A stretch of DNA of 32,923 nt from Calditrichota bacterium (GTDB lineage Bacteria > Zixibacteria > MSB-5A5 > GN15 > FEB-12). The stretch lies in NCBI GenBank assembly GCA_008501655.1, contig QQUK01000150.1, positions 1-32,923 of the forward strand, given 5' to 3'. Below the pieces are notes generated by a model. That model was not told where the DNA came from and made no database searches. It saw only the letters and a list, made by a program, of their open reading frames with translations. Numbering within the stretch: the first letter of the stretch is position 1; each line of letters starts with the position of its first letter. Positions 18,562 to 32,923 of this stretch are shown here, in pieces. Position numbers and translations under genes: made by a program.

Positions 18562-18565
18562 AAAT

Positions 18566-19108
18566 ATGCAGGCGGTAGCTACAAAAATGAAAGTCATAAT
18601 ACCGCTGGCATTGTTTGTTATCATAGCATTGCTCTATATCCATTTCAGAAGGATATCTGATACCTTGATTGTGATGCTGTCACTTCCATTTTCATTGGTT
18701 GGCGGTATATGGCTGATTTATCTGCTCGGGTACAACACATCGGTTGCGGTATATATCGGCTTTATTGCACTTGCCGGTTTAGCGGCAGAAACCGGAGTAG
18801 TGATGATTATGTATCTCAATTCAGCCAAAAAACAGAGGGAGATAAATAATCAGCTTCAATCGGATGCTGATTTAAAAGAAGCTATAATCGAAGGTGCCGT
18901 TGACAGAGTCCGGCCAAAAATAATGACTGTTGCTACGACAATTCTGGCATTGCTGCCGGTAATGCTTGGTCATGGAGTCGGTTCAGAAGTAATGCAGCGA
19001 ATCGCTGCACCGATGGTGGGTGGATTGATTACTTCGACATTCCTGACTCTGGTGATCGTTCCGTCACTTTATTACATAGTACATCGAAACAAAGATAAAA
19101 TTATCTAA
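18566..19108 (+). CDS. cusA: CusA/CzcA-family RND pump, C-terminal fragment (TM8-12 region; fragment 2 of 2)
   Basis: The +1 frame reads GQYENMQAVATKMKVIIPLAL..., continuing the conserved WSGQ(Y/F)E block. The fragments sum to about 1040 aa, the normal CusA size. Confidence 0.8.
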   Translation: MQAVATKMKVIIPLALFVIIALLYIHFRRISDTLIVMLSLPFSLVGGIWLIYLLGYNTSVAVYIGFIALAGLAAETGVVMIMYLNSAKKQREINNQLQSDADLKEAIIEGAVDRVRPKIMTVATTILALLPVMLGHGVGSEVMQRIAAPMVGGLITSTFLTLVIVPSLYYIVHRNKDKII

Positions 19109-19122
19109 TAGTAGTATTTAAC

Positions 19123-19153
19123 AAAGAGGCAGAGCTGAAAGCTCTGTCTCTTT
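19123..19153 (+). terminator. Strong hairpin after the RND operon; probable terminator with a weak U-tract
   Basis: AAAGAGGCAGAGCT / AGCTCTGTCTCTTT forms a 14-bp stem (one G-U pair) with a 3-nt loop, 15 nt after the cusA stop. Confidence 0.5.
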
Positions 19154-19306
19154 AAAAACCGATACTGTATTAGTATGACTAACGGTCCTATATATTTATC
19201 AATTAAACATTCAATTTTTCTTAATTTCTCAGTTATAAATTCAAATTGATTTCTTAAGTAGTATGCAGTATATATGTCTATGATATTAAAGAGATTAGGT
19301 TAATTG

Positions 19307-20653
19307 ATGAAAAATAGCAGTAACAAAAATCGTCTTGAATCAATTCTATCCTTATTTACTGAAGTGAAAGCAAAAGAGGGTACAAAAGCTCTCTTGATGT
19401 CATTAAACATCTTTTTGATTTTAACAGCTTACCTGATTGCCAAAGTTGTACGTGAACCTTTAATTCTCGATAGTCCCGGTGGTGCCGAAATAAAAAGTTA
19501 TGCTTCAGTTATTCAGGTCTTTTTACTAATCGGAGTTGTACAGATATTTGGATGGTTAGTTTCAAAATTGAGCAGCAGGAAACTCATAAACTCAGTAACT
19601 TTATTTTTTGTATCTTGTTTTGTTCTGTTTTATCTGTCACATCTCATTCTTGGCGGAATAAATGGAATCACTTATTTTCTCTGGGTCGGCATATTTTCTC
19701 TAATGATAATAGCGCAGTTCTGGTCCTTCGCAAATGATATCTATACCCCTGAAGAAGGAAAGCGGTTGTTTGTCCTTCTTGCTTTTGGTGCTTCCTTGGG
19801 CGGTGTGATAGGTCCGACTATTGCTTCAGCGATACTCAGTATATTTGGAATTTTTAATCTATTGTTAGTTTCTGCAGGAATACTGCTTATCTCACTCCTG
19901 TTGACAAATTTTATCATTACAAAATATGTTGATGATATAAGTAACAAGGGAAAAGAAAAAACGAAAACAGAGATAGAAAAAACCGGTGCACTTAAAGTTG
20001 TTTTTCGCAATAGATATTTATTGATGATCGCTCTTTTGATACTTGTCACTAATCTGGTAAATACAACCGGAGAATATATTCTTGGAAAAGGTGTTGAACA
20101 GGCAGCTCAGGACCTTACACCCCAACTATCAGCAGATCCTGATATTCAGAAAACATTTATTGGTAAATTTTATGCCGACTTTTATTCTATCGTCGGGTTT
20201 GTCGGATTGATTTTACAACTGGTCGTTGTTTCCAGGATATTAAAATATTTTGGCGTTCGTACGGCAATTATGACACTGCCGATTATTGCACTCGGGACAT
20301 ATCTGAGCATAGCTATTTTCCCGGTACTTGCTGTTATACGCTGGGGAAAAACAGCTGAAAATGCTACCGATTATTCACTAAATAATACAGTCCGGCACAT
20401 TCTCTTTTTACCAACAACAAAAGAAGAGAAATATAAAGGAAAAGTTGCCATCGACTCATTCTTTGTAAGAGCTGGTGATGTTCTTTCAGCCGGGTTAGTT
20501 TTTGCAGGTGTAAGTTGGTTTACTTTTCAGATTCAGCATTTTGCAATTGTTTGTCTCTGTCTGGTCATAATCTGGCTTTTTATCGCATTCTGGATTGGTA
20601 AAGAAAATAAAAGGTTGATAAAGGAAAAAGAACTCAGCATAGAGAATGTGTAG
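19307..20653 (+). CDS. TLC/AAA-family (ATP:ADP-antiporter-like, Npt-type) membrane transporter
   Basis: LNIFLILTAYLIAKVVREPLIL and FWSFANDIYTPEEGKRLFVLLAFGASLGGVIG resemble the F..FF.IL.NY..LR..KD and FW.FAN.I....EAKRFY.LFG.GAN blocks of TLC nucleotide transporters. The protein is multi-TM. I prefer the ATG at 19307 over the TTG at 19304. Confidence 0.7.
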   Translation: MKNSSNKNRLESILSLFTEVKAKEGTKALLMSLNIFLILTAYLIAKVVREPLILDSPGGAEIKSYASVIQVFLLIGVVQIFGWLVSKLSSRKLINSVTLFFVSCFVLFYLSHLILGGINGITYFLWVGIFSLMIIAQFWSFANDIYTPEEGKRLFVLLAFGASLGGVIGPTIASAILSIFGIFNLLLVSAGILLISLLLTNFIITKYVDDISNKGKEKTKTEIEKTGALKVVFRNRYLLMIALLILVTNLVNTTGEYILGKGVEQAAQDLTPQLSADPDIQKTFIGKFYADFYSIVGFVGLILQLVVVSRILKYFGVRTAIMTLPIIALGTYLSIAIFPVLAVIRWGKTAENATDYSLNNTVRHILFLPTTKEEKYKGKVAIDSFFVRAGDVLSAGLVFAGVSWFTFQIQHFAIVCLCLVIIWLFIAFWIGKENKRLIKEKELSIENV

Positions 20654-20658
20654 ATTCT

Positions 20659-21948
20659 ATGAGAATTCAATTATCCAAATATATATTCATCTCCTGCTTG
20701 ATTGCTTTTACATCAATAGTTAGTCATGCGACTGTTATTGACACCACTAAAGTACGGATAACAAAAAAAGTAAAAAAAACGACTGCCGAGATAATCGGAG
20801 ATATTCCCGGTGAAATACTCAAACTCCCCTTTTATATCTTAGACTTTTCCATCGAACAAATTACATTTCATACCCCGATGAAAAATGTACTGTCCTGGAT
20901 TGGAACACCCCGCCCGGCTGCATTTTATACGCCGGTTGCCGGATACAACTCTTCTGCCGGATTCAAATATGGTATCAGTTTTAAATTTCAGGATGTTTAT
21001 TCAAAAAATGATTATTTTAAAACAAAAATTTATTATTCAACAAATAAATACCAGTCATATCAAATCAAAACAAGATCCAAGGATTTTTTTACCAAAGATT
21101 TTGGTTTTGATTTTTACTTCAGATATAAAAAACGCCCCAGAGAAGATTTCTTTGGAGTATCAAACCAAAGCGTTGCTCACATGAGCGCAAATTATAATTT
21201 GGAGAATACAGAAGTAAAAACTCAGTTACTGTATAATGCTTATGAACAGGCAGACTTCTCATTTATTCTTGGGTATCTGAGTACAAATTTATATAACGGA
21301 GAAAATCCCGATTTACCCGGTGATCTCGATTCGATAACTTCAAATACTGATTATCATTTAGCGGATGGGAATCTTGATGATTCCCGTTTTATTACATACG
21401 GTATGGAAATTGAATATGATCTTCGAAACAACAAAGGGCAGCCTTCAAGCGGGACTCATCTGATTTCTCAGCTGATACGTTACCGTGGTGTTGGTCTTTC
21501 CGATGATTTAAGATTTTCTAAATATTCAATTGATGTCCGGCAGTATCTGCATCTATGGAAAAATAGGATCATTGCTCTCCGTGCCGTAGTTAATCGATTA
21601 AATGCATATAAGAACAACACAAAAGCAACACCGATATATATCTTAAGTTCGCTTGGAGGTAAAGATTACCTTCGGGGATATTCCAGCGGTCGTTTTGTTG
21701 ATAATGATTTTGCCCTCTTTTCTGTTGAATATAGATATCCGATACATGATTTTCTTGATCTTTTCCTCTTTCATGACCAGGCAAGAGTCTATGGAAATCT
21801 GACCGATGAGGAATTCTTCACTAACTGGAAAAGTTCATTTGGCGGTGGTATGCGAATCTGGAAAAGTGATGAAGTCAAAGCTGTCTTTCAGATTGGCAAA
21901 AGCAATGAGGCAACAAAATTGTATTTAGAAATGGAAGCTGTCTGGTAA
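20659..21948 (+). CDS. Omp85/BamA-TamA-family outer-membrane beta-barrel with no obvious POTRA array
   Basis: Signal peptide, GGKDYLRGYSSGRFVDNDFALFSVEYRYP (bacterial surface antigen motif), alternating beta-strand pattern and a C-terminal ...YLEMEAVW aromatic terminus. Confidence 0.75.
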   Translation: MRIQLSKYIFISCLIAFTSIVSHATVIDTTKVRITKKVKKTTAEIIGDIPGEILKLPFYILDFSIEQITFHTPMKNVLSWIGTPRPAAFYTPVAGYNSSAGFKYGISFKFQDVYSKNDYFKTKIYYSTNKYQSYQIKTRSKDFFTKDFGFDFYFRYKKRPREDFFGVSNQSVAHMSANYNLENTEVKTQLLYNAYEQADFSFILGYLSTNLYNGENPDLPGDLDSITSNTDYHLADGNLDDSRFITYGMEIEYDLRNNKGQPSSGTHLISQLIRYRGVGLSDDLRFSKYSIDVRQYLHLWKNRIIALRAVVNRLNAYKNNTKATPIYILSSLGGKDYLRGYSSGRFVDNDFALFSVEYRYPIHDFLDLFLFHDQARVYGNLTDEEFFTNWKSSFGGGMRIWKSDEVKAVFQIGKSNEATKLYLEMEAVW

Positions 21949-21949
21949 G

Positions 21950-23611
21950 ATGAAACGGTTGATTCTACTGTTATTTATAATGGTTATTGCGCTTCAGTTA
22001 TCCTGTGCTCATAATCCACATATCAATCCGGAAGGTCCTTTTTGGAAAGATGATGACACCAAAGCAATTCCTGAACCGGAATATGATGAACCCTCACTTA
22101 TCTGGCTGTCTTTTCAACGAACTACCACCGATCAGCTTTTTGAACTACTTGATATTGATAGAAATATCCGAAAAATTTCCGGAAAACCAACGCAGGCGAA
22201 AAACAGTAATTGCTACGATGAGGTTCCGAACTCCAGCTGGTTTACCAACAGGCATGGGCATCCTGACACAAGATTATCACCGGAAGAGATAAAACAAGGC
22301 TTACAGAGAACTAAAGGTCCCGATACATCAGGTGTATGGAAAGTTTTCCGCCCTAAAGTCGGAGGAGCTACTCCCGGATTCTGGATTGAAGATATCCATG
22401 GTGACCAGTATATCATTAAATTTGATCCTTTATTCAATGCCGAGATGGCTACTGCTGCCGCTGCTATCGGTTCCAGATATTTTTACGCATGCGGTTATAA
22501 TACACCACAGGAGACAATCGTCTTCTGGAATCCGGATAAGCTTGAGATTAAAAAAGGTGCTACCATTAAAGGTAAAAACGGTAAACGCCCCCTTACAATG
22601 ACTGATATAGATAGTATTCTTTCTATGGTAAACCATGAACCCGATGGTTCGATTCGTTCTTTGGCATCTTTAAATATCGGAAATGTTAAAGGTCCTTTTA
22701 TGTATAAAGGAACCAAGGACGATGACCCTAATGATTGGTGCCCTCATGAACATCGGAGAGAACTTCGGGGACTGTATGTTATTGGCTCATTAGTAAATCA
22801 TTATGATTTAAAGGACCATAACTCAATGGATGTGTATGTAGGGGAACCAGGACAAGGTTACTTAAAACATTATTTAATGGATTTTGGTTCTATACTCGGT
22901 TCTGACGGCAAAGGAGATAAACATCCCCGCAAAGGTTATGCAAACATGTTTGATTTACGGGACATTTTAGTGACCTCTTTTACTCTCGGTCTGAAATCAT
23001 GGGCGTGGCAGAATTCCCTTGGTCCCCGCTACTCTTCGATTGGTTATTTTGAATCTGATATTTTTGAACCGAATAAGTTTGACCCGATTATCCCCAATCC
23101 GGCATTTGAACAGATGACCTATCAGGATGCATATTGGGGTGCTAAAATTGTAATGTCATTTACAGAAGAGGATTTGATTGCTTTAATCGATGCCGGACAA
23201 TATAGTAATCCTGAAGCCAAAGCATACCTTTTAAAAACACTAAAAGAACGCCAAAGAAAAATAGGTAATTACTGGTTTGATAAAATCAATCCGCTTGATT
23301 TTCCGGAACTCTCTCAAAGCAGTGAAACTATCAATATTAAATTTCATGATTTAGCTGTTGAGTATGGACTTGAAGATGACAATGCTGTTTATTATTATAA
23401 ATTATTAAATGAGAATAATTCAATTATCCACGAAGCAACCGTATCAAAAACAGAAATAGTCTTAAATGTTGACCAATTTGATAGTGGTATAAGAGAACTG
23501 CAAATTTTTACGGAGCGAAAAGGAAAAGATATTTCAAAGCCTGTTATTTTCTATCTCATGAAACAGTATAAGAATAATGTTAAAATCATCGGCATCGAGC
23601 ATCCGGGATAA
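21950..23611 (+). CDS. Exported (lipo)protein of unknown function with protein/lipid-kinase-like catalytic motifs
   Basis: Signal peptide MKRLILLLFIMVIALQLSC (Cys19, relaxed lipobox). Motifs: GDQYIIKFDP (K157), NAEMATAAA (E165), VNHYDLKDHNSM (D286, K288, N291) and HYLMDFGSILGS (D311-F-G). Confidence 0.7.
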   Translation: MKRLILLLFIMVIALQLSCAHNPHINPEGPFWKDDDTKAIPEPEYDEPSLIWLSFQRTTTDQLFELLDIDRNIRKISGKPTQAKNSNCYDEVPNSSWFTNRHGHPDTRLSPEEIKQGLQRTKGPDTSGVWKVFRPKVGGATPGFWIEDIHGDQYIIKFDPLFNAEMATAAAAIGSRYFYACGYNTPQETIVFWNPDKLEIKKGATIKGKNGKRPLTMTDIDSILSMVNHEPDGSIRSLASLNIGNVKGPFMYKGTKDDDPNDWCPHEHRRELRGLYVIGSLVNHYDLKDHNSMDVYVGEPGQGYLKHYLMDFGSILGSDGKGDKHPRKGYANMFDLRDILVTSFTLGLKSWAWQNSLGPRYSSIGYFESDIFEPNKFDPIIPNPAFEQMTYQDAYWGAKIVMSFTEEDLIALIDAGQYSNPEAKAYLLKTLKERQRKIGNYWFDKINPLDFPELSQSSETINIKFHDLAVEYGLEDDNAVYYYKLLNENNSIIHEATVSKTEIVLNVDQFDSGIRELQIFTERKGKDISKPVIFYLMKQYKNNVKIIGIEHPG

Positions 23612-23615
23612 AAAT

Positions 23616-24452
23616 ATGAAAAACTTATTGAAATGCATTATTGTTCTCGCAATTGTCATGCTTTGGTTTAATGACTCCCCAAAGGCTGACAGCTTTTTAT
23701 CAGCTGGTGATGTTGCCGGTATTTCCGTTGGTACTGCTACCCTGTCGTTTTCAGGATATTACCTCAGAAGATATGACACTACCCGTACAGCTAAAATAAG
23801 TACAACACTTCCCATGGACAATGCTATGATGAAACTTATTGGAGGTTCATTTTATCCGGGTAAAACAAATTTTTTAGATAATCATTTCGGATCAGCTGTT
23901 ACTCCGGTTTCCGGTGCAGTTATTCTTACTATAGCAAACTTATCACATATAAATCATCAAAAAAGTAAATTCTATTTTCAGGACTTGTTTTTGTATACAT
24001 CGGGGATTATTGCAACGAAAGGTGTTACCGATTTAACCAAAGGATTTTTCACTCGTCCGAGACCGTACATTGCATCTGTGCCTATGGAAATGCGGACTTC
24101 AAAAGATTTCATAACAGACCGGTCATCATTCTTTTCAGGGCATACATCGGGTGCATTTTTTGCAGTCTCCTATCTAAATATGCGCATCAGGTCAATCATG
24201 CGCTCGGAAATGTCTTCGCAGGGTTATCGGGATTATCGCTGGATATCTCCAACGTTGTTATACAGCTGGGCAACATTTGTCGGAATGAGCCGTATTCATG
24301 CATACAAACATTATTTTTCCGATATTTTGTTTGGAGCAGCAGCCGGATACCTTATGGCTGAACTATTTTATTCCTTTGGTAAATCAGAAGAGTTAAATAT
24401 GGGAAACAGCGAAGTTTCTCAAATGATAATCCAGCTTAACTTTTCATTTTGA
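23616..24452 (+). CDS. PAP2-superfamily membrane phosphatase (lipid-phosphate phosphatase-like)
   Basis: KGFFTRPRP (KxxxxxxRP), SFFSGHTS (SGH) and SRIHAYKHYFSD (SRxxxxxHxxxD), with a signal/TM segment. The ATG at 23616 lies 4 nt after the upstream stop, and I prefer it over 23577. Confidence 0.85.
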   Translation: MKNLLKCIIVLAIVMLWFNDSPKADSFLSAGDVAGISVGTATLSFSGYYLRRYDTTRTAKISTTLPMDNAMMKLIGGSFYPGKTNFLDNHFGSAVTPVSGAVILTIANLSHINHQKSKFYFQDLFLYTSGIIATKGVTDLTKGFFTRPRPYIASVPMEMRTSKDFITDRSSFFSGHTSGAFFAVSYLNMRIRSIMRSEMSSQGYRDYRWISPTLLYSWATFVGMSRIHAYKHYFSDILFGAAAGYLMAELFYSFGKSEELNMGNSEVSQMIIQLNFSF

Positions 24453-24522
24453 TAGCAACATGAATAGCCTATATTGTATTGATGATAAACAAATTTCGTT
24501 CTTGTTAACGGATTAGATAATA

Positions 24523-26730
24523 ATGACTCATTACAAAACATTTTTTATATCTTTTGCCCTTTTAATTCTGATAACGGCTACCAAAGGCCGTTCAACAGAA
24601 TCATTGGATTTAGATATTAATACTTTGGACACACTTGCATACTTCTGTTCGGTAGATGAAAATTGGTTGTATATTAAAGATGATAAACCTGAATATAAAA
24701 AACTTTCGTATAATGATTCCGGGTGGATCAAAATAGCTCCTTTAATTGATGTCGATTCTGTTGAAAATTACACTTACGGATGGTTTCGTCTCCATCTTAA
24801 TGTTGATTCTTCATTATTCAATAAAAAAGTATATGTTACATGCGTTCAGATCGGCGCGATTGAACTTTATTATAATGAAGAGTTAATATACTCACTTGGA
24901 ACTGTCGGTAAAACCAAAGAATCGGAAATCGCATATTTTCGTCCGAACTATAGCCTCCCATTCGAACTAGAGATTGAGCCGAGAGAAAAACAACTGTTAG
25001 CCGTACGATATTCAGCTGTTAATGAAGAATTGAGAATTCTTCATAACATTGGCGGTGGGTTTGTAATAAAAGCTGATACAGCAAAAAGCGTTATCGCAAA
25101 ATTTCAAGAAGAATCAAATCGTATTGTAAAACACCAGATGTTTTTTACGGGGCTTTGTTTCGCTCTGTTTATCCTGCATATACTCATGTTTCTTTTTTAT
25201 AGAAAATCAAATATCAATCTGTATTTTGCACTCTTCACATTAAGTTGTGCCTTGCTTTCTTATGCTCCGATAGAGTTTAACAAAGCCGGTGTAATCGAAA
25301 AAGCAGTTAATTTGCTCTACCTGTTTAAGCTCTCTTTAATCGGCTGTTCGGTTATGGCAATTCGTGTCCTCTATGCCATTTATTATGAAACAGTTCCCCG
25401 TTCATTTAAATATTTTGCCGGTGCCGGTATCATTATTATGCTGTTTCAATCATATATCAATTTTATGCTGTTTTATGTTATAACCCTCCTTTACTTTCTT
25501 GAAGTGTTCCGGGTTATTCTCAAAGCTATCAAAGATAAAAAAGAAAATCTCTGGATTATTACAACCGGATTTGTTGTCTTTTTACTTTTTTCTACATATC
25601 AAATGTTTCTGGAACTTCTGCAAGTTCCAAATTGGGATTTTTCTCTGATACAGCCGTATATGATTGGTCTCTTTACCCTGATGATTGCTCTTTCCGCTTA
25701 TATTGCACATTCTATATCAGCAACAAATCTTAAACTTGAAAATAAGCTAACTGAAGTAAAAGAGCTATCTGAACATGCATTAGAACAGGAACGATTCGCT
25801 CAGGAACAACAGATGAAGCAGAAACTTCTTGAAGCTGATATCGAACACCAAAAAGAACAAATTGAAAAAGGTAAAGAACTTGAAAAAGCATACAAAGAAC
25901 TCGAAGCAGCGACTAAAAAAATACAGGACACCCAAACTCAGCTTATTCAATCGGAAAAGATGGCATCACTCGGTCAGTTAGTTGCCGGCGTTGCTCATGA
26001 AGTTAACAATCCTATCGGAGCGATCAAAAGTATTCATGCAACGCAGGTAAAGGCTTACGAACGGCTGAAAGAACAACTCACAAATCTTGAAAAACTAAAT
26101 GATTCAGATAGAGAGAAATTTACCAAATATTTGAAAATTATCGAAAATGCAAACTCAGTTATTTCAAACGGCTCAGACCGGGTTTCAGAAATTGTCAGGC
26201 GGCTAAAAAGTTTTGCACGACTTGATGAAGCTGAGTTACAACGAATAGACATCAACGACTGTATTGATGATACACTTTCATTGATTCATCATGAAATTAA
26301 ACATGACATCATTGTTAATAAAATCTGCGGTGAAGTCCCGTTGATCGCCTGTTATCCGGGACAATTGAACCAGGTTCTTTTAAATCTGTTGATAAACGCG
26401 AAACATGCGGTCAATGATGTCGACCGTAAAGGCGAGATTCATATTTCAACCAATTTTATTGAAAATCGTGTTTTGATTATTATTGAAGATAACGGCAAAG
26501 GAATCCCAAAAGAGAATCTGACAAAAGTCTTTGATCCGGGATTTACAACAAAAGGTGTAGGAGTCGGTACCGGGTTGGGTCTCTCAATCTGTTACCAGAT
26601 TATAAAGGACCATCATGGCGAGATAAAAGTTGAAAGTAAAGTAGGTGCCGGCTCAATGTTTGTGATTGATCTGCCGGTAAACTTAGAAGAAATACTCGGT
26701 AAAAAAATTACCGATTCAACTCAAACTTAA
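24523..26730 (+). CDS. 7TM-DISM sensor histidine kinase
   Basis: N-terminal extracytoplasmic domain (YGWFRLHLNV, 7TMR-DISMED2-like), seven consecutive TM helices, a coiled coil, H-box SEKMASLGQLVAGVAHEVNNPIGAI and HATPase blocks NLLINAKHA, DNGKGIP and GVGTGLGLSI. Confidence 0.85.
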   Translation: MTHYKTFFISFALLILITATKGRSTESLDLDINTLDTLAYFCSVDENWLYIKDDKPEYKKLSYNDSGWIKIAPLIDVDSVENYTYGWFRLHLNVDSSLFNKKVYVTCVQIGAIELYYNEELIYSLGTVGKTKESEIAYFRPNYSLPFELEIEPREKQLLAVRYSAVNEELRILHNIGGGFVIKADTAKSVIAKFQEESNRIVKHQMFFTGLCFALFILHILMFLFYRKSNINLYFALFTLSCALLSYAPIEFNKAGVIEKAVNLLYLFKLSLIGCSVMAIRVLYAIYYETVPRSFKYFAGAGIIIMLFQSYINFMLFYVITLLYFLEVFRVILKAIKDKKENLWIITTGFVVFLLFSTYQMFLELLQVPNWDFSLIQPYMIGLFTLMIALSAYIAHSISATNLKLENKLTEVKELSEHALEQERFAQEQQMKQKLLEADIEHQKEQIEKGKELEKAYKELEAATKKIQDTQTQLIQSEKMASLGQLVAGVAHEVNNPIGAIKSIHATQVKAYERLKEQLTNLEKLNDSDREKFTKYLKIIENANSVISNGSDRVSEIVRRLKSFARLDEAELQRIDINDCIDDTLSLIHHEIKHDIIVNKICGEVPLIACYPGQLNQVLLNLLINAKHAVNDVDRKGEIHISTNFIENRVLIIIEDNGKGIPKENLTKVFDPGFTTKGVGVGTGLGLSICYQIIKDHHGEIKVESKVGAGSMFVIDLPVNLEEILGKKITDSTQT

Positions 26731-26733
26731 TCT

Positions 26734-29526
26734 ATGCTAAAATCAGCCCGTTCCATATTTGATATCAGAGAAGGAGAGTATAAGATAACTTTTCTGATGC
26801 TTGCCAATATTTATCTGATACTCCTGACATTCTATTTTCTCAAACCTGCCCGTGATTCTCTCTTTTTAGTGGAACTGGGTGCTGACCAGCTCCCCTATGT
26901 ATTCATTCTCACCGCATTGATTGTGATACCAATAACCACCTTGTATTCCAAAGCAAGCCGGATATTAAAACTGAACCGGCTAATCATATATACGAATGTG
27001 GCTCTGATTTTTTGTCTTTTTATATTAAGGTACTTGATGATTCATCCAAATGACTGGGTCCCCTATCTTTTTTATTCCTGGGTTTCAATTTATGGCGCTT
27101 TGACGACTTCACAGTTCTGGTTATTAGCAAATCATATCTATACCGCTACTCAGGCAAAGCGGTTGTTTTCACTTCTTGGGCTTGGTGCTATTTTTGGCGC
27201 ATTTTCCGGAGGTGAAATTACAAATATAATGGTCGATTATATGAATGTATCAACCGAAGATCTTTTATTGTTTTGTGCCGGCTTTGTCTTCTTCTCGATA
27301 CTGCTCATTAAACTAATTTGGAACTCAAAAAAAACTGAAATCGAGCTGCAACACAGACAGCTTAAAAAAGAACCACAAAGAAAAGAATCACTTTGGACTA
27401 TTTTTGAATCAATAAAAACTTCAAAACACCTTATGTTAATAGTTGGAATTCTATCTATTACAATGATTGTAGGTTCACTGATAGACTTTCAGTTTAAAGC
27501 TATTTCAACCGAATCATTCACCGATACTACAACTGGTATAGTAAATAAATCGGAGTTAACAGCATTTTTAGGAACTTTCTATGGAAGACTTTCATTAGCA
27601 TCTATATTTATACAGATGTTTCTTGCCGGAAAAGTTATCAAAAAATTCGGTGTCGGCACAATTATCCTGTTACTGCCAATTGGATTGCTATTAGGTTCTG
27701 TTGCATTCTTTGCTTACACATCACTGATTTCTGCTGTTCTTCTCCGTGGTACTGATGGCGCATTAAAAAATTCAATTGATAAAACCGGGAGGGAGTTACT
27801 TTTTTTACCGGTTACTCCGGAATTGAAAAAGAGAACAAAACTCTTCATCGATCTTTTTGTCGACAGAGTTGCCAGAGGGCTTGCCGGTTTTCTTTTACTT
27901 TTACTGATCGCTGTTTTTCATTACGATGAGGACCCTGTGTCCGCGATGCAGTCAATTTCTTTGGTCATCGGATTGTTTGTTACTGTTTGGCTAATACTCG
28001 CCTTTCTGATGCGTGTTGAATATGTGAATACTTTCCGTCAGGCGATTGAAAACAGAGAATTGAATCTTTCAGAAATTCGCCAGCAAATTAACGAATCATC
28101 TACAATCAACATCCTCATCACTTCATTGCAAAGCAGCAACCAACGAGAGATTATCTATGCCCTTGATATGCTTGAAGGGATCAAGAATGAATCCCTTATT
28201 GACCCGCTGAACAAGCTTCTACAGCATAATTCTGATGAAATTGTTATTAAAACACTGAAGCTCTTGAAACATAACTATGAAGAGATTGAAATCACCAACA
28301 TAAAATCGTTTGTTGATTCACCAAATCCACAGATTCGAATTCAGGCTCTCCATATTCTCATGCTCAAAGAATCCGATAGATCAGATGAACTTGTTCAGTC
28401 ATATTTGACGCATGAAAATGTTGAACATAGAATAACAGCTATTTGTATGCTTTCTGAAATTGGTACAAATAAACAAACTGCCCTTATAAATGATGTGATG
28501 ATATCAAATATCATTACGTTTTCGGAAGACAATCAGGAAAATCTGAAACTTCTTGTTCGTGCACTCGGTCAACTTCAGAATCCTGAATACTCCAAATATG
28601 TCGGCCGGATGCTCGACCATCCCTCCGATGAAATCGGTAACGAAGCCATAAAGGCGATCAGGAAATTAAAAGATCTTGAGTTTACCAATTGGCTGATCAA
28701 GGCTCTTGCTGATAGCCGGTATCGGGTTGAAGCAAGAAAAACATTAGCATCATTTGGTACATTGATCCTTTATAGACTCAACGAACAATTGAATGATTTT
28801 ACAACATCCTGGCAGATTAAAATTCAATTACCGAAAACAATGAGCCTGATTCATGATCAGATGTCGATTGATATCCTGACCGCATCACTTAGTCACACAG
28901 TAGAAAATTTGAAGTTTCATATTATAAAAGCCCTGAGTAAACTTCGGGTAAATTGTCCTGATCTTAATTTTTATCAGAAAAAGATAGATCAATTTATCAT
29001 TTCCGAAATTAAAATGTATTATCAATATGAACAGATACTATCTGTGATAGCTCAAAATAGTGATGATGAAAAGCTTCTCCATAAATCAATCGAAGAGAGT
29101 CAGAATTTAAAAATTGAACAGATATTCAGGTTACTTGGACTATATTTAAATCCGACAGATATTTACAATGCTTACCAGGCAGTAGTCAGCAAAGACAAAA
29201 ACAGGCAGTCATCAGCTGTCGAACTTTTAGATAATATCTTAAGTAGAGAATTAAAAAAGTATCTGCTTCCTATATTCGATGAACAAGACCGAGATAAAAT
29301 AGTTAATACTGGTAGAGAACTCTATAAACTAAAAAGATTAAGCAGCGAAGGTGCTCTGCTGCTTCTTGTTGATGGTAAAGATATCTGGCTGAAATCACTC
29401 GCCACTTATGTAGCCCGAAATCAGCAAACAGATAAAATTACAAAATCAGTACAGAAACTTCAGAACTATAAAATTACTGTTGTAAATGAAGCTGTTGAAC
29501 TATATCTTAATACAGCAGATAGGTAA
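26734..29526 (+). CDS. TLC-like transporter domain fused to a long C-terminal HEAT-repeat domain
   Basis: The N-terminal ~430 aa are paralogous to 19307-20653 (IYLILLTFYFLKPARDSLFL; FWLLANHIYTATQAKRLFSLLGLGAIFGAFSG). The C-terminal ~480 aa carry HEAT/PBS-lyase-like repeats (NQREIIYALDMLEGI, NPQIRIQALHIL, VEHRITAICMLSEIG, SDEIGNEAIKAIRKL, SRYRVEARKTLASFG). Confidence 0.72.
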   Translation: MLKSARSIFDIREGEYKITFLMLANIYLILLTFYFLKPARDSLFLVELGADQLPYVFILTALIVIPITTLYSKASRILKLNRLIIYTNVALIFCLFILRYLMIHPNDWVPYLFYSWVSIYGALTTSQFWLLANHIYTATQAKRLFSLLGLGAIFGAFSGGEITNIMVDYMNVSTEDLLLFCAGFVFFSILLIKLIWNSKKTEIELQHRQLKKEPQRKESLWTIFESIKTSKHLMLIVGILSITMIVGSLIDFQFKAISTESFTDTTTGIVNKSELTAFLGTFYGRLSLASIFIQMFLAGKVIKKFGVGTIILLLPIGLLLGSVAFFAYTSLISAVLLRGTDGALKNSIDKTGRELLFLPVTPELKKRTKLFIDLFVDRVARGLAGFLLLLLIAVFHYDEDPVSAMQSISLVIGLFVTVWLILAFLMRVEYVNTFRQAIENRELNLSEIRQQINESSTINILITSLQSSNQREIIYALDMLEGIKNESLIDPLNKLLQHNSDEIVIKTLKLLKHNYEEIEITNIKSFVDSPNPQIRIQALHILMLKESDRSDELVQSYLTHENVEHRITAICMLSEIGTNKQTALINDVMISNIITFSEDNQENLKLLVRALGQLQNPEYSKYVGRMLDHPSDEIGNEAIKAIRKLKDLEFTNWLIKALADSRYRVEARKTLASFGTLILYRLNEQLNDFTTSWQIKIQLPKTMSLIHDQMSIDILTASLSHTVENLKFHIIKALSKLRVNCPDLNFYQKKIDQFIISEIKMYYQYEQILSVIAQNSDDEKLLHKSIEESQNLKIEQIFRLLGLYLNPTDIYNAYQAVVSKDKNRQSSAVELLDNILSRELKKYLLPIFDEQDRDKIVNTGRELYKLKRLSSEGALLLLVDGKDIWLKSLATYVARNQQTDKITKSVQKLQNYKITVVNEAVELYLNTADR

Positions 29527-29529
29527 ATT

Positions 29530-29967
29530 ATGTTAAGTATAATTGAAAAAGTTCTCTTTTTACAGAATATTGATGTTTTTGATCAGGTTCCATCGGAACT
29601 TCTTGCTATGCTTGCAGCAATCACTACAGATATTAAAATTCCAAAAGATTCTACAATATATAATATTAATGACCACTCCGATGCGATGTATCTTGTATTA
29701 AGCGGTTCTGTTAAACTGCATATAGATAACAGAGAAATATCAACAGCAAAAAGTAAAGATGCTTTCGGTACCTGGGCACTCTTTGACGATTCACCGAGAG
29801 TTGTTACAGCGGTTACGCTTGAGGATACACATCTCTTAAAAATCGACAGAGAAGAATTTGTTGATCTACTTGCCGACAATGTGCGCATCACTCAGGCAAT
29901 AATGAAAACACTTGTGCAGAGAATGAGAAACCTTGTAAATCGGATTGATATTAGTAGTAATAAATAA
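29530..29967 (+). CDS. Cyclic-nucleotide-binding (cNMP/CAP-effector) domain protein
   Basis: 145 aa with the layout F..V....L..L......I.KD..IY...D..DAMYLVLSGSVKL...FG..ALFD..PR..T..A...T.LLKI.REEF. It has no DNA-binding domain. Confidence 0.78.
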   Translation: MLSIIEKVLFLQNIDVFDQVPSELLAMLAAITTDIKIPKDSTIYNINDHSDAMYLVLSGSVKLHIDNREISTAKSKDAFGTWALFDDSPRVVTAVTLEDTHLLKIDREEFVDLLADNVRITQAIMKTLVQRMRNLVNRIDISSNK

Positions 29968-31529
29968 TGACAAATTCAGATAAGCATAATCATACCGATT
30001 CAATGGAAAAATTCCAACAGATGGTCGAATTTTCAAATGATGCTATATTTTTAATCGACCCAGACAATGCGGCTATCATCTATGCAAATCTGAAAGCTGA
30101 AAAATACTGCCAACTTGATAGAGAGAAATTATACGGATTAAAAGTTTGGGAATTACATCCGGAAGATGAAAAAGATAAAGTTCAAAATGTATTTGAAACA
30201 GTTAAAAAGGAATCTTTTGGATATCATAACGAACTTAATCTCCTGAGACCAGATAAGTCAACTCTTGTAGTCGATGTTTCCTCAACAATGATTACCTGCA
30301 ATGGTATTCAGGTAATTCAGAGAATTTGTCATGATATCACTAATCGTAAAAAATTGATGGAAGATAAACAGCAAATCTTAGATACTTTTAGGCTTGTTTT
30401 GGATATGATGCCGGTAGGATTTGGAATACGGTCTGATTTAAATGGAACACCTAAAATTATTTTTGAAAATATTCAGTTAAAAAAAATGTTTCATACAGAT
30501 GATCAAGACCACAATCATGATCACTGGGATATAGTTGGTAAATCAGACGTTATTTGCGAAAATGTGGTAATAGATGAGAACGGGACCTACGTAGAGGAGC
30601 ACAAACTCCCCGATGGCCGGATTATGCAGTTTACAATCTCGTATATACGGGATCTATATAATGAATGGCGTGAACTGCAGATAGTGCGCGATGTCACCAA
30701 ACGGCGTGAACTTGAACAGGAACTCATCTCAGCTAAAGAAAATCTCGAAGAAAAAGTAAAAGAACGCACTCTTGAATTACAAGAAAAACAAACACAGCTC
30801 ATTCAGGCGGAAAAAATGGCTGCACTCGGCAATCTTGTTGCCGGAGTAGCACATGAAATCAATACTCCGATGGGTGCTTTAAAGAGCAATAATGACCTTT
30901 TTAAGCGGTATATGCTCAAAATTAAAAATATTATTGAATCTTCAGAAAATTCTAAACAACTCATGGGTTCTTTAGCAAAGTTTTTTGAGAATATTGATAA
31001 ATTAAATGATATCAACGAAACAGCGGCGGAACGAATTATCAAAATCGTTCAATCATTAAAGAATTTTGCAAGACTTGATCAATCAGAAAAAGATACAGTG
31101 GATATCCATGAAGGCATTGAATCTACATTGACATTAATTCACCATGAGATTAAAAATAAGATAATTATCGAAAAAGATTATAAGCTTACCAGTATGATTA
31201 ATTGTTATCCGAACCAGCTAAATCAGGTATTCATGAATATTCTGGTTAATGCCGCTCAGGCAATTGAAAAAGAAGGGACAATTAAGATTAAGACTTATCA
31301 ACAGTACTCATCTGCTTATATTGAAATTTCTGACACCGGTAAAGGAATACCTGAATCCGAGCAAAACAGGATTTTTGACCCCGGTTTTACTACCAAAGGA
31401 GTCGGTATAGGTACCGGGCTCGGATTGTCAATTGTACATCAGATTATTCAGCACCATAATGGTGATATTTCTCTTTTGAGTGAAGAAAATAAAGGAACTA
31501 CTTTTACAATTTGTCTCCCCATCAAGTAA
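29967..31529 (+). CDS. Cytoplasmic PAS-domain sensor histidine kinase
   Basis: PAS block FQQMVEFSNDAIFLIDPDNAAIIYAN...CHDITNRK, a second PAS-like region ending VRDVTKRRELE, H-box AEKMAALGNLVAGVAHEINTPMGAL, and HATPase blocks NILVNAAQA, DTGKGIP and GIGTGLGLSI. The ATG overlaps the upstream stop (TAATG). Confidence 0.85.
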   Translation: MTNSDKHNHTDSMEKFQQMVEFSNDAIFLIDPDNAAIIYANLKAEKYCQLDREKLYGLKVWELHPEDEKDKVQNVFETVKKESFGYHNELNLLRPDKSTLVVDVSSTMITCNGIQVIQRICHDITNRKKLMEDKQQILDTFRLVLDMMPVGFGIRSDLNGTPKIIFENIQLKKMFHTDDQDHNHDHWDIVGKSDVICENVVIDENGTYVEEHKLPDGRIMQFTISYIRDLYNEWRELQIVRDVTKRRELEQELISAKENLEEKVKERTLELQEKQTQLIQAEKMAALGNLVAGVAHEINTPMGALKSNNDLFKRYMLKIKNIIESSENSKQLMGSLAKFFENIDKLNDINETAAERIIKIVQSLKNFARLDQSEKDTVDIHEGIESTLTLIHHEIKNKIIIEKDYKLTSMINCYPNQLNQVFMNILVNAAQAIEKEGTIKIKTYQQYSSAYIEISDTGKGIPESEQNRIFDPGFTTKGVGIGTGLGLSIVHQIIQHHNGDISLLSEENKGTTFTICLPIK

Positions 31530-31591
31530 ATTCATTGAAACAATTGCTCTGTTTATGTATATATAGAGATAACAAACGAAGGAGTAGATAA

Positions 31592-32074
31592 ATGTCAGAT
31601 ACAGATAATGATAAAGTTGTATTAATCGTTGATGATGAAGAGATGGTTCTAAGTTCTATCAGTTCATTTCTGGAACTTGAAACATCTTATAAAGTAGTAA
31701 CATTTACAGAACCGGGAAAAGCATTGGAATACGTAAATGAAAACTCAATTGACCTGGTTATTTCTGATTACCTGATGCCGCATATGAACGGTATACAGTT
31801 TCTAAGCAAAATGAAAGAAGTTATGCCTCAGGTTCCCCGTATTATCCTGACCGGCTATGCCGATAAAGAAAATGCTATCAAGGCAATTAATGATGTCGGT
31901 TTATTTCAGTATATAGAAAAACCGTGGGATAACGATGATATTCTTCTGATTATCCGAAACGGTCTGGAACGGAAAGAACTAATGAAAAAACTCGATGATA
32001 AGATTTCACAGATTAACGCTGCATACAGTGAACTTCAGGGGTTGCATAAAGAGATTGTGAAAACTTTTATATAA
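31592..32074 (+). CDS. Stand-alone response-regulator receiver (CheY-like) with a short coiled-coil tail
   Basis: VDDEE acidic pocket, phospho-acceptor in LVISDYLMP, LTGY, KPW, and a GGAG RBS upstream. There is no output domain. Confidence 0.9.
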   Translation: MSDTDNDKVVLIVDDEEMVLSSISSFLELETSYKVVTFTEPGKALEYVNENSIDLVISDYLMPHMNGIQFLSKMKEVMPQVPRIILTGYADKENAIKAINDVGLFQYIEKPWDNDDILLIIRNGLERKELMKKLDDKISQINAAYSELQGLHKEIVKTFI

Positions 32075-32539
32075 GAGAAATTATAAAATCTACACCATTG
32101 TAATTATAGGTCGACAGAATAATTACTTTAAACGGTGGAAAATGCAGCGATCAGAACTCACATCCCGATTTGATGAACCGCTGTACACTATATAGCAAAC
32201 TAGCCCAAAATCAGATTCTGTTATAGATACAATTTCTTTTAAACAGATTAATAAACTGTGGTGGCGTAGACTCCATACTTGCGTTATAGCACAAGAACTT
32301 ACACCCTATTGTGATCTCACTATCACATTTTTATACAATCATTAAATACTTTATGCTATGATCTGTTTATCTCTGAACGTAAGTGCCTACATACAATATG
32401 TACAGTATATTTAATATTTGTGGTTATGATATTGATACTTATATGATTTGGACATAACAGATATACATTTAGCCATTCAGACCGTAAATCGTTAACTTCA
32501 CTTAAACATTCAATAATTACACGTTTTTAATATTGTTTT

Positions 32540-32670
32540 TATAACATATATACTAAACACTTATTTTATCTGTTTATCACTTATTTCTCTTGACATCTAA
32601 GCATATTATAACTATTTTCATACTACAGTTACTATAACATTATATATACTAAACATTTATTTCTTTGGAC
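32540..32670. repeat. Two direct copies of an AT-rich motif (TATAACAT..ATATACTAAACA[C/T]TTATTT..CT[C/T]T[T/G]GAC), with an inverted core copy at 32765-32774
   Basis: Copy A is 32540-32594 and copy B is 32633-32670. The core ATACTAAACA sits at 32550-32559 and 32646-32655, with its reverse complement at 32765-32774. All were read directly. Confidence 0.5.
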
Positions 32671-32923
32671 GAGAGGTAATGACGATTGAACTCAATCCTA
32701 TATACATTATCGGTATAACCCTCTGTAAATAGATAAACAACATAAATATTTAGTAAAATCATTATGTTTAGTATTTGTATAAATTACCCTCTTTTTCCTA
32801 TTGAAAGGAGGTTTAAATAAGGAAAAGGGTATCAGATGATTTAGGAGCAATTAACCGGATTATAAAAAACGGATTAAGGAGATATTAGAAGATCTTATTT
32901 AAATGCATTTGCTAAAACTATAA

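Follow-up and report, generated by a model that had tools for sequence, protein, structure and literature searches.

A conserved nine-gene cluster with a kinase-like lipoprotein, an Omp85 barrel and two nucleotide-carrier relatives in a Calditrichota bacterium

The window analysed here, 32,923 nucleotides of contig QQUK01000150.1 from a Calditrichota bacterium, contains nine + strand ORFs at 19307-32074 (Table 1). Taking the ATG at 23616 as the start of gene 4 (an alternative ORF start lies at 23577, and one for gene 1 at 19304), the spacers from gene 1 to gene 9 were 5, 1, 4, 70, 3, 3, -1 and 62 nt. This tight packing, described in the initial annotation, was reproduced exactly from the ORF listing, and both of the borders proposed there were confirmed. 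On the left, a hairpin with a 14-bp stem including one G-U pair (dG -24 kcal/mol; z = -6.3, with 0 of 200 shuffles equally stable) closes a CusCBA-type RND efflux operon of OEP, HlyD/CusB and ACR_tran genes. On the right, the tail contained no ORF of at least 48 aa and had a GC content of 24–36%; no Rfam family was matched in it, and folding found no terminator-like structure directly 3' of gene 9. No stable or terminator-like structure was found in the internal 70-nt and 62-nt gaps when they were folded against shuffles (z about +1).

Table 1. Features of the cluster and its borders (nucleotide positions in the window unless residues are given).
Feature	Position	Strand	Description
Terminator-like hairpin	19123..19153	+	Left border of the cluster; closes the upstream RND efflux operon
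Gene 1	19307..20653	+	Short TLC/NTT-family (ATP/ADP-carrier-like) MFS transporter, 448 aa
Gene 2	20659..21948	+	Omp85-family outer-membrane barrel; signal peptide, POTRA undetected ("noNterm" type)
Gene 3	21950..23611	+	Exported lipoprotein (Cys19): conserved N-terminal region, kinase-like core, C-terminal beta-sandwich
Gene 3, protein-kinase-like core	22235-23293 (residues about 96-448)	+	Predicted, structure model
Gene 3, C-terminal Fn3/Ig-like beta-sandwich	residues about 449-553		Predicted, Fn3-like fold matches
Gene 4	23616..24452	+	Signal-peptide-bearing PAP2 phosphatase; all three catalytic motifs
Gene 5	24523..26730	+	Membrane sensor histidine kinase; HisKA + HATPase_c
Gene 6	26734..29526	+	TLC/NTT carrier fused to a C-terminal HEAT-repeat domain (NTT-HEAT)
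Gene 7	29530..29967	+	Stand-alone cNMP-binding-domain protein; 3 nt past gene 6
Gene 8	29967..31529	+	Cytoplasmic PAS histidine kinase; start overlaps the gene 7 stop (TAATG)
Gene 9	31592..32074	+	Single-domain response regulator; receiver + about 40 aa tail
AT-rich ORF-free tail	32075..32923		Right border of the cluster

The earlier domain calls were reproduced, and only the 7TMR-DISM label of gene 5 proved weaker than stated. Gene 1 matched Pfam TLC (2.5e-23; 83 bits vs cutoff 21) and MFS_1 (5.5e-12), contained ten hydrophobic segments, and had homologues named in their sources as "AAA family ATP:ADP antiporter" or "NTP/NDP exchange transporter". Its family profile matched the solved ADP/ATP carriers 9j3n (8e-16) and 9j3j (5e-8). 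Gene 6 combined TLC (2.1e-18) with HEAT_2 (6.8e-21), and by these matches genes 1 and 6 are both true NTT relatives. The cNMP_binding match of gene 7 (3.1e-17, 63 bits) included a phosphate-binding cassette in which the Arg was kept and a Thr replaced the canonical Glu. In gene 5, a periplasmic domain of about 180 aa, without any Pfam match, was followed by 6–7 transmembrane segments (residues 207-391) and HATPase_c (1.3e-22), while HisKA (24.7 vs 26.9 bits) and 7TMR-DISM_7TM (22.4 vs 29 bits) remained under the Pfam cutoffs. Gene 8 matched PAS_9 (1.8e-11), HisKA (3.9e-7) and HATPase_c (4.1e-25), with no transmembrane segment found by hydrophobicity, and gene 9 matched Response_reg over residues 10-121 of 160 (5.8e-28, 98 bits), with no output domain.

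Omp85 was matched by gene 2 at residues 116-400 (1.4e-15; 58 bits vs cutoff 24), and an LRGY loop-6 (lid-lock) motif was read from the sequence. Neither POTRA nor any other Pfam family was detected at E <= 10, in agreement with the POTRA-less barrel first proposed. Gene 3 had no sequence match in Pfam, NCBIfam or PDB, and the comparison of its profile with PKA found nothing. The structural check suggested by the initial annotation was carried out on the gene 3 core and gave a confident model (pLDDT 92.3, pTM 0.92), for which every significant or top Foldseek match in PDB was a kinase. The best was CtkA of Helicobacter pylori (PDB 3akl; E 4e-6; TM 0.44 query-normalised and 0.53 target-normalised; 11% identity), then Fam20C (1e-4), then PINK1 and Rio2, with SidJ among the weaker matches; these are distant relationships (TM 0.44–0.53, identity 10–12%). 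K136/G139/G143, K157, N283, D286, K288, N291, D311 and F312, which cover the Gly-loop, the beta-3 Lys, HxDxKxxN and DFG, were invariant across 67 homologues, and the alpha-C Glu/Asp was kept in 64 of the 67. A lipobox, with its Cys conserved, was present in 58 of 66 homologues, and the whole family comprised 3,517 clusters at 50% identity. The exported kinase-motif lipoprotein of the initial annotation was upheld by this motif, fold and lipobox conservation. From its modelled fold and its invariant catalytic residues, the gene 3 product is predicted to be an exported protein-kinase-like enzyme, which may act as a kinase on an envelope target.

A different function of gene 3 was the least probable of the explanations weighed, its chance being put as low. 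The lipoprotein would then be an accessory component of an Omp85 assembly machine (BamB-E-like), or its fold would catalyse AMPylation (as SelO) or glutamylation (as SidJ). All Omp85 proteins characterised so far assemble or translocate proteins and have lipoprotein partners (PMC4104836, PMC11358297), and kinase folds with other reactions are known, SidJ being one of the fold matches. Nevertheless, invariance of the full canonical phosphotransfer set would be unusual for pseudokinases, and a purely structural partner would leave the linked carriers and phosphatases unexplained.

Gene 4 matched PAP2 (3.6e-21, 76 bits), and the motifs KX6RP, SGH and SRX5HX3D were read from its sequence. The protein was strongly hydrophobic in the N-terminal segment only, and since it was weakly hydrophobic beyond the signal peptide, it was unlike a polytopic lipid phosphatase. 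The PAP2 motifs and the export signal are shared with the periplasmic lipid A phosphatases LpxE/LpxF and the phosphotransferase LpxT, although LpxE was only a marginal match (E 0.72). Gene 4 also differed from these enzymes in lacking a strongly hydrophobic multi-span profile, no LPS genes were present in the cluster, and a calcineurin-like phosphoesterase replaced PAP2 in the gene-3 loci of other genomes. A phospho-lipid or phospho-glycan substrate had been suggested for the cluster, but nothing pointed specifically to either.

The gene-neighbourhood search proposed earlier, anchored on the lipoprotein and on the TLC-HEAT protein, revealed homologues syntenic across many phyla. The 80 best gene-3 loci carried about 14 phylum-level labels, and 41 of them had full 10-kb flanks. 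Of the 80, 72 had an Omp85 gene, which directly preceded gene 3 in 64 loci; 44 had a TLC carrier, 33 a phosphatase (PAP2 or calcineurin-like metallophosphoesterase) and 22 a cNMP gene. The corresponding counts among the 41 full-flank loci were 39, 26, 24 and 16, about a third of these loci having no TLC gene within 10 kb. PAP2 itself was present in 23/80, phosphoesterase lipoproteins adjoined gene 3 in 12/80, and these two unrelated families, PAP2 and calcineurin-like phosphoesterase, alternated at one position beside gene 3. TLC-HEAT, fused or split, was observed in about 27 of the 80, from Zixibacteria, Ignavibacteria, Latescibacterota, Calditrichia, Bacteroidota, Gemmatimonas and Nitrospira. 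Gene order in the closest relative (L081) was identical to that of the window, and in Nitrospira moscoviensis it was PAP2-Omp85-gene 3. Order and strand differed between lineages, with convergent, divergent and co-linear arrangements, and the linkage kept despite this variation argues for selection on it.

When TLC-HEAT was used as the anchor, 80 metagenome loci were retrieved, 31 of them long (15 kb or more). Gene 3 was found in 18 of these 31 and was absent from 54 of the 80, many of which lay on short contigs. A cNMP gene followed TLC-HEAT in 60/80, and homologues of gene 9 (60–80% identity) accompanied the two in 45/80. Gene 3 was within 8 kb of none of the seven stand-alone gene-1-type carriers looked up. 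Hence, carriers of the gene 1 type are often found apart from gene 3, and the link between the two genes is asymmetric.

These counts bear on the possibility that two neighbours without mechanistic link lie side by side, genes 1-4 as an envelope unit and genes 5-9 as a regulated NTT-HEAT for cytoplasmic nucleotide or energy balance. The 70-nt gap between genes 4 and 5, the 54 loci without gene 3 and the frequently solitary gene-1-type carriers are consistent with it. TLC-HEAT with a cNBD gene has been reported in cyanobacteria, chlamydiae and oomycetes (PMC5381601), none of which was a label among the 80 best gene-3 loci, and the carriers therefore have roles beyond the gene 3 kinase. Nevertheless, gene 3 was present in over half of the long TLC-HEAT loci, the recurrence of TLC-HEAT in gene-3 loci of varied order and strand is difficult to account for unless the two are functionally coupled, and the 70-nt gap had no terminator-like structure. 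Two independent units were therefore judged distinctly unlikely.

The explanation preferred, tentatively and at somewhat below an even chance, is a widely conserved envelope system in which an extracytoplasmic phosphotransfer module, formed by two linked modules, would be supplied by nucleotide carriers. Module A would consist of a noNterm Omp85 (gene 2) translationally coupled to the kinase-like lipoprotein (gene 3). A short TLC/NTT carrier (gene 1) usually accompanies them, as does an exported phosphatase (PAP2, gene 4, in the window; a calcineurin-like phosphoesterase in other genomes). Module B would be TLC-HEAT (gene 6) as a regulated carrier, together with the small cNMP protein (gene 7), the receiver (gene 9) and either one or two histidine kinases (genes 5 and 8). 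The barrel would hold the lipoprotein or pass it through, and there gene 3 could phosphorylate a protein, lipid or glycan of the envelope, with a nucleotide as donor. Supply would come from the TLC carriers, which would export ATP through the inner membrane in exchange for ADP; the phosphatase would remove the phosphate mark, and the cytoplasmic HEAT domain, the cNMP protein and the phosphorylated receiver would gate the second carrier on periplasmic and cytoplasmic signals. If this is true, some free-living bacteria may phosphorylate targets outside the cytoplasm.

The synteny of gene 3, its invariant kinase residues, the alternating phosphatases, the existence of PF00149-Omp85 fusions and the terminator-free gaps all point towards this phosphotransfer system. 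Against it stand the import function of known NTTs, the gene-1-type carriers found alone, the third of full-flank loci without TLC, the distant fold match and the empty PKA comparison. To our knowledge, there is no precedent for NTT export of nucleotides to the periplasm, and periplasmic ATP could leak out via outer-membrane pores. Furthermore, if gene 3 were moved to the cell surface by the Omp85, as proposed for Leptospira, a periplasmic nucleotide supply would miss it.

Such surface display or secretion was considered unlikely as a whole: the Omp85 would translocate gene 3, in a split type V-like manner, to the cell surface, where the enzyme would act on extracellular substrates, and the carriers and phosphatases would scavenge inward the nucleotides or phosphate released outside. 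Both PAP2 acid phosphatases and calcineurin-like phosphoesterases typify the exported enzymes that cleave phosphoesters, and each kind adjoins gene 3, whose C-terminal Fn3-like domain is of a kind common in surface proteins. PlpD is an Omp85 barrel that exports an enzyme domain (PMC4104836), Leptospira noNterm Omp85 genes precede lipoprotein genes, for which the authors propose translocation (PMC11358297), and the characterised NTTs named in PMC5381601 all import nucleotides, into parasites or organelles. Nevertheless, invariance of every phosphotransfer residue would be unnecessary for a binding or scavenging protein, a surface kinase of free-living sediment bacteria would have no nucleotide donor, and gene 2 lacks the POTRA domains used by TpsB and PlpD. 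We also know of no Omp85 barrel that serves as a nutrient channel, which counts against scavenging.

The preferred phosphotransfer system resembles the Fam20C secretory-pathway kinases in logic only, by an extracytosolic kinase fold, a nucleotide carrier and lumenal phosphatases. Carriers of the eukaryotic ER and Golgi supply lumenal ATP to the secretory-pathway kinases, but they are of other families than the TLC/MFS type found here. Fam20C ranked near the top of the fold matches (E 1e-4, prob 1.0), with 10–12% identity, TM 0.30–0.39 and no sequence-level relationship to gene 3. CtkA is likewise an exported bacterial Ser/Thr kinase, but it is described as proinflammatory and cell-translocating; it is not known to be a lipoprotein paired with an Omp85, and in free-living bacteria gene 3 could draw on no host cell for ATP.

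No characterised locus matching the cluster was found in Pfam, NCBIfam, PADLOC, PDB or the literature searched. The initial claim that this is not a described pathway stood for the whole cluster, but two of its gene pairs were already on record. The noNterm Omp85 and lipoprotein pairing of Leptospira (LIC12252/12254/12258; PMC11358297), with no function assigned, resembles genes 2 and 3 by a missing POTRA and a lipoprotein gene directly downstream; gene 2 is a candidate member of the same noNterm subgroup (DUF5982). Unlike gene 3, the partners there are DUF1566 or Big-domain lipoproteins, and neither carriers nor phosphatases are mentioned at those loci. Omp85 barrels that carry a fused PF00149 phosphoesterase domain, and that noNterm barrels resemble (Heinz and Lithgow, 2014, PMC4104836), echo the phosphoesterase lipoproteins beside gene 3. 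The second pair, NTT-HEAT next to a cNBD gene (Major, Embley and Williams, 2017, PMC5381601), was reported as conserved, with no function, and corresponds exactly to genes 6 and 7. It differs from the present case in that gene 7 lacks the canonical cassette Glu, that no link to an Omp85, a kinase-like lipoprotein, a phosphatase or a two-component system is mentioned there, and that the pair is embedded here in a larger conserved cluster.

The nine plus-strand ORFs that the initial annotation had grouped into one cluster were reproduced by an ORF listing, with the same spacers of 5, 1, 4, 70, 3, 3, -1 and 62 nt. Its two borders were also recovered: a hairpin on the left, which closes a CusCBA-type RND efflux operon, and an ORF-free, AT-rich tail on the right, where 850 nt with a GC content of 24-36% contained no ORF of at least 48 aa. 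When the internal gaps of 70 and 62 nt were folded, no stable structure was found in either; hence, nothing in the sequence opposes a single transcript. The sigma-70 promoter scan of the window stayed at chance level (49 found vs. 54.6 expected), the sigma-54 search gave fewer matches than expected by chance, with none upstream of gene 1, and the Rfam search of the window detected no RNA family.

Coordinates of the features described in the text. Loci with L-numbers are retrieved genome or metagenome loci holding relatives of the cluster genes
Feature	Locus	Position	Strand	Details
Nine-gene cluster (genes 1-9)	window	19307-32074	+	
Left-border hairpin	window	19123-19153		14-bp; dG -24 kcal/mol; z -6.3
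Gene 3, residues 30-128	window	21950-22340	+	lipobox to kinase core
Gene 4 (PAP2)	window	23616-24452	+	ends ...LNFSF
Gene 7 (phosphate-binding cassette, residues 79-96)	window	29530-29967	+	FG-T-W-AL..PR-V-x-T-A
CusA-like RND pump gene, whole	window	15973-19108		two ORFs, different frames
CusA-like RND pump, first ORF	window	15973-18561		ACR_tran match, model positions 1-853
CusA-like RND pump, second ORF	window	18566-19108		ACR_tran match, model positions 861-1021
Three-gene set	window	8011-10647	-	GNAT + C39-like peptidase fusion (DUF3335); RimK-type ATP-grasp ligase; RimK-like N-terminal domain protein
Gene directly after gene 3 (example)	L024	11571-12929		phosphoesterase lipoprotein or ~420-aa protein
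Gene directly after gene 3 (example)	L006	6586-7938		phosphoesterase lipoprotein or ~420-aa protein
Separate TLC and HEAT ORFs (example)	L013	3364-6118	-	
TLC carrier and kinase gene	L163	8001-11765		Pkinase-TPR-AhpC/TSA protein
TLC carrier and kinase gene	L168	15009-17389		dCache-Pkinase protein

The cluster was confirmed as real, conserved across phyla and centred on a new kinase-like family of exported proteins, that of the lipoprotein encoded by gene 3. At 50% identity, this family comprises 3,517 clusters with E <= 1e-3 (1,111 with E <= 1e-30), its members are uniform in length, and every homologue is named "hypothetical protein". No match was obtained in Pfam, NCBIfam or the PDB sequences (phmmer/hmmsearch) with either the single sequence or a 24-member profile, and the 24 members searched against Pfam and NCBIfam had none even at E <= 10. 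By sequence profile, gene 3 matched no described kinase family (Pkinase, Fam20C, CotH, HipA, RIO, APH, Kdo and others), and the alignment of its family with PKA by hhalign reached a probability of 0.4%. A search of the viral structure library was uninformative.

The full-length model (pLDDT 80) contained a central domain weakly resembling Fam20C and a C-terminal Fn3-like sandwich, and its kinase matches were weak and mixed with Fn3 matches. This ambiguity was resolved when the core (residues 96-448) was re-modelled alone with a deeper alignment of 67 sequences, which raised the pLDDT to 92.3 with a pTM of 0.92. The top 24 matches of the core among PDB structures at E <= 1e-3 were all kinases, although distant ones, with probabilities up to 1.0 and TM scores up to 0.53. 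The best of them was the Helicobacter pylori kinase CtkA (4e-6; TM 0.44 normalised by the query and 0.53 by the target), followed by Fam20C, PINK1, Rio2, CAMK1D and amicoumacin kinase.

The catalytic residues agreed with this fold. K136, G139 and G143, in the loop joining the first two strands, and the beta-3 lysine K157, at the end of the third strand, were present in all 67 homologues; the alpha-C residue E165, at the start of the helix after the third strand, was E or D in 64 of them. The HxDxKxxN motif (N283-H284-x-D286-x-K288-D-x-N291) follows the helix 270-281, with N283, D286, K288 and N291 invariant in the 67 sequences and H284 kept in 64, and the DFG motif comes after two further strands (D311 and F312 67/67; G313 57/67). 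In the model, the placement of these residues on strands and helices corresponds to kinase topology. Export was indicated by the lipobox at the end of the signal peptide, whose Cys19 was invariant in 24 sequences; a lipobox-like N-terminus was found in 58 of 66 homologues, most of the remaining sequences being displayed in N-terminally truncated form. The kinase-motif lipoprotein of the initial annotation was thus upheld by lipobox, modelled fold and invariant catalytic residues, and we conclude that gene 3 probably encodes an exported enzyme of protein-kinase-like fold whose family has no model in the libraries searched. From the same evidence we infer kinase activity. That the protein instead plays a non-kinase role is, given the complete set of invariant catalytic residues, considered very unlikely.

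The stretch that links lipobox and kinase core (residues 30-128) is highly conserved (e.g., FDEVPNSSWFTNRHG), has low model confidence and matches no family; it is a candidate for docking onto the Omp85 barrel. A tandem second copy of gene 3, in some cases with a second Omp85 gene, was seen in L035, L037, L043, L065, L116/L151, L144 and L148, indicating that the family duplicates locally.

The neighbourhood of gene 3 was analyzed in 80 genome loci, fetched with an alignment of its homologues from among at least 584 relatives. They carried the labels Zixibacteria, Ignavibacteria, Calditrichia, KSB1, Latescibacterota, Krumholzibacteriia, Gemmatimonas, Bacteroidota/Cytophagia, Rhodothermales/Balneolaceae, Marinimicrobia, Poribacteria, Acidobacteriota, Nitrospira, Deferribacteres and Deltaproteobacteria, and included the cultured Nitrospira moscoviensis, with the order PAP2-Omp85-gene 3. 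Unbiased clustering of all the ORFs in these loci returned the window's own genes as the commonest neighbours. Counts were obtained by iterative profile searches, both in the 80 loci and in the 41 with full 10-kb flanks. Omp85 was found near gene 3 in 72/80 (39/41), immediately upstream in 64; any TLC carrier in 44/80 (26/41); PAP2 or a calcineurin-like phosphoesterase in 33/80 (24/41), the 33 being made up of PAP2 in 23 and the phosphoesterase in 12, with both in 2; a cNMP gene in 22/80 (16/41); and histidine kinases in 27-28 of the 80. Gene order and strand varied among lineages. The position directly after gene 3, held by PAP2 in the window, was occupied in 12 loci by a calcineurin-like phosphoesterase lipoprotein (Metallophos 3e-14) and in 8 by a secreted protein, about 420 aa long, that had no match in Pfam.

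These last two proteins and a sigma-54-type response regulator were recurrent neighbours missing from the window. Homologues of gene 3 also appeared on contigs binned as Heimdallarchaeota (L056, of just 2 kb) and Eubacteriales (L054), for which mis-binning looks likelier than true presence in these groups.

The combination of genes had been said to match no described pathway, and this was borne out in the literature searched, where no paper described either the lipoprotein with its kinase-like fold or the cluster as a whole; only papers on NTT-HEAT proteins and on Omp85 barrels without an N-terminal domain (noNterm) surfaced. A role in anti-phage defence was rejected, as the PADLOC matches were generic only (cNMP, HEAT and receiver domains).

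The immediate upstream partner, gene 2, was identified as an Omp85 barrel (PF01103, 58.1 bits, cutoff 24) with the loop-6 RG(Y/W) motif present as LRGY. It lacks POTRA domains, as initially annotated: no POTRA family was matched even at E <= 10, and in the roughly 90 residues between signal peptide and barrel neither a POTRA nor any other N-terminal domain was detectable by sequence. It scores below the BamA equivalog threshold (TIGR03303, 50.7 bits, cutoff 297), and two-partner secretion (TpsB) was discarded because there was no POTRA/POTRA_2 match. The noNterm Omp85 subfamily was defined by Heinz and Lithgow (2014; PMC4104836), who also defined Omp85 proteins with a fused PF00149 domain and likened the noNterm barrels to these fusions. 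In a 2024 study of Leptospira, lipoprotein genes follow noNterm Omp85 genes, and roles in either assembly or translocation were proposed (PMC11358297).

The phosphatase assignment of gene 4 was likewise confirmed (PAP2, PF01569, 75.7 bits, cutoff 27.2), with all three catalytic motifs present: K-GFFTRP-RP (KX6RP), SGH (of PSGH) and SR-IHAYK-H-YFS-D (SRX5HX3D). The polytopic topology of PgpB/LpxE-type lipid phosphate phosphatases was not found; by the crude Kyte-Doolittle method only the N-terminal signal reaches 1.6, other segments scoring <=1.5. Being weakly hydrophobic beyond its signal peptide, the protein looks exported rather than polytopic and may reside in either the periplasm or the outer membrane. 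Its C-terminus, being aromatic, recalls the signals of outer-membrane proteins.

Genes 1 and 6 are both members of the TLC family (PF03219; 83.1 and 66.8 bits, cutoff 21) and fall outside TIGR00769, the model of the characterised NTP/NDP exchangers (65.5 and 44 bits, cutoff 387); as judged from these profiles, they are distant relatives of that clade. Gene 1, assigned to TLC/MFS by Pfam, has 10 hydrophobic segments and gene 6 has 9, both being multi-span and MFS-like, and the gene 1 family profile matched the solved ADP/ATP carriers 9j3n (8e-16) and 9j3j (5e-8). To our knowledge, TLC/NTT carriers are the sole bacterial family known for ATP/ADP exchange across a membrane. Gene 6 is a TLC-HEAT fusion, as proposed, with TLC and HEAT_2 in one ORF (Pfam), and gene 7 begins 3 nt past it. 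This is the pair of NTT-HEAT fusion and adjacent cNBD gene described as widely conserved and of unassigned function by Major et al. (2017; PMC5381601). The characterised NTTs are importers, and why free-living bacteria retain such carriers was left open in that work (PMC5381601).

The cNMP-binding domain of gene 7 was verified (PF00027, 62.7 bits, cutoff 27.5). Its phosphate-binding cassette retains the Arg in 60 of 65 homologues, but the canonical Glu is replaced by Thr in 51 of 65, followed by an invariant Trp. Since this Glu is systematically missing from the family, the proposed cyclic-nucleotide input is uncertain, and the ligand may be other than a standard cyclic nucleotide. In five Ignavibacteria genomes (L013-L018), TLC and HEAT parts lie in separate adjacent ORFs (about 506-528 and 418-462 aa), representing either two working proteins or a recurring identical frameshift.

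The remaining genes encode two-component proteins, with HisKA and HATPase_c domains in the kinases (genes 5 and 8) and an acceptor Asp in the receiver (gene 9); the H-box His of the kinases and the Asp, Thr and Lys of the receiver were read in the sequences. Pfam and NCBIfam agreed with the description of gene 8 as a PAS histidine kinase and of gene 9 as a receiver without an output domain. Gene 5, previously called a 7TM-DISM kinase, is a multi-span histidine kinase (6-7 hydrophobic segments), but its 7TMR-DISM_7TM score (22.4 bits) lies below the cutoff of 29, and its periplasmic domain matched no Pfam family, DISMED included.

The association was also approached from the carrier side, with 80 metagenome loci fetched from an alignment of the TLC-HEAT protein. 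The next gene was a cNMP gene in 60, a histidine kinase was adjacent in 48 and a receiver like gene 9 was present in 45. Gene 3 occurred in 26 of the 80 and in 18 of the 31 that were at least 15 kb long, and in the closest relative, L081, the gene order was identical to that of the window. Synteny was seen with both the lipoprotein and the TLC-HEAT protein as anchor. For the short carrier, seven gene-1-type proteins (53-70% identical) on long contigs were looked up; none had gene 3 or Omp85 within 8 kb, and in one case the contig did carry gene 3, some 17 kb away. This contradicted the idea that such carriers are dedicated partners of gene 3. The association is thus strong whether the kinase or TLC-HEAT is taken as the starting point, and short TLC carriers occur in other contexts too. 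These other contexts would suit an arrangement of two unrelated units that merely adjoin; with gene 3 in over half of the long TLC-HEAT loci, that arrangement appears distinctly unlikely.

The best-supported reading, held tentatively, is that of two linked modules for nucleotide-supplied phosphotransfer. One would comprise the Omp85 barrel, the exported kinase-like lipoprotein, the short carrier and the exported phosphatase; the other, the HEAT-gated carrier, the small ligand-binding protein, the sensor kinases and the receiver. The case for nucleotide supply is indirect: an enzyme that is exported and has a complete nucleotide-dependent active site must find its donor beyond the cytoplasm, and the carriers are the putative supply because the ATP/ADP-exchanging family is the most enriched beside gene 3 after Omp85. 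The two unrelated phosphatase families alternating at one position fit a write/erase pair, and the same supply logic operates for eukaryotic secretory-pathway kinases. Against nucleotide supply, the characterised NTTs import, carriers are also found without gene 3, and a nearby carrier is missing in a third of the well-sampled gene 3 loci. Moreover, the lipoprotein might reach the cell surface through Omp85, beyond a periplasmic supply; the rival reading of surface display with scavenging is judged unlikely. The initial proposal of envelope phospho-remodelling was partly supported, by the synteny and by the exported kinase-like fold, and the function of the cluster itself we infer.

Carried further, nucleotide-supplied phosphotransfer would amount, in some free-living diderms, to a phosphorylation cycle that is fuelled by nucleotides and runs outside the cytoplasm, with ATP export by relatives of the ATP/ADP carriers of intracellular parasites working in reverse, an envelope kinase docked on an Omp85 barrel of its own, an exported eraser phosphatase and a second, HEAT-gated carrier under two-component and nucleotide-ligand control. 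This fuller scheme is rather doubtful as a whole; if true, the NTT carriers of free-living bacteria would gain a function and a new envelope kinase family would be defined. The periplasm is generally held to lack ATP, and the envelope processes known so far take their energy or phosphate from other sources. The cluster brings together an exported, unannotated enzyme of a large family (some 3,500 clusters at 50% identity), in which the kinase active site is complete, and homologues of the sole bacterial proteins known to be dedicated to ATP/ADP exchange. Were this link mechanistic, it would account for NTT retention in free-living bacteria, give one group of noNterm Omp85 barrels a role and provide a bacterial counterpart to eukaryotic secretory-pathway phosphorylation. 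The hypothesis is specific and testable. Should the mechanism prove wrong, the cluster still offers a well-defined multi-phylum target, cultured N. moscoviensis included, and the new kinase-like family deserves a family model.

Additionally, TLC carriers were observed away from gene 3 with a Hanks-type Ser/Thr kinase gene as their next downstream neighbour (L163 and L168), which may reflect a broader carrier-kinase link or a coincidence. Upstream of the cluster, the CusA-like RND pump gene is broken into two ORFs, by a frameshift that would make it a pseudogene or by a sequencing error, and a three-gene set unrelated to the cluster is encoded on the minus strand.
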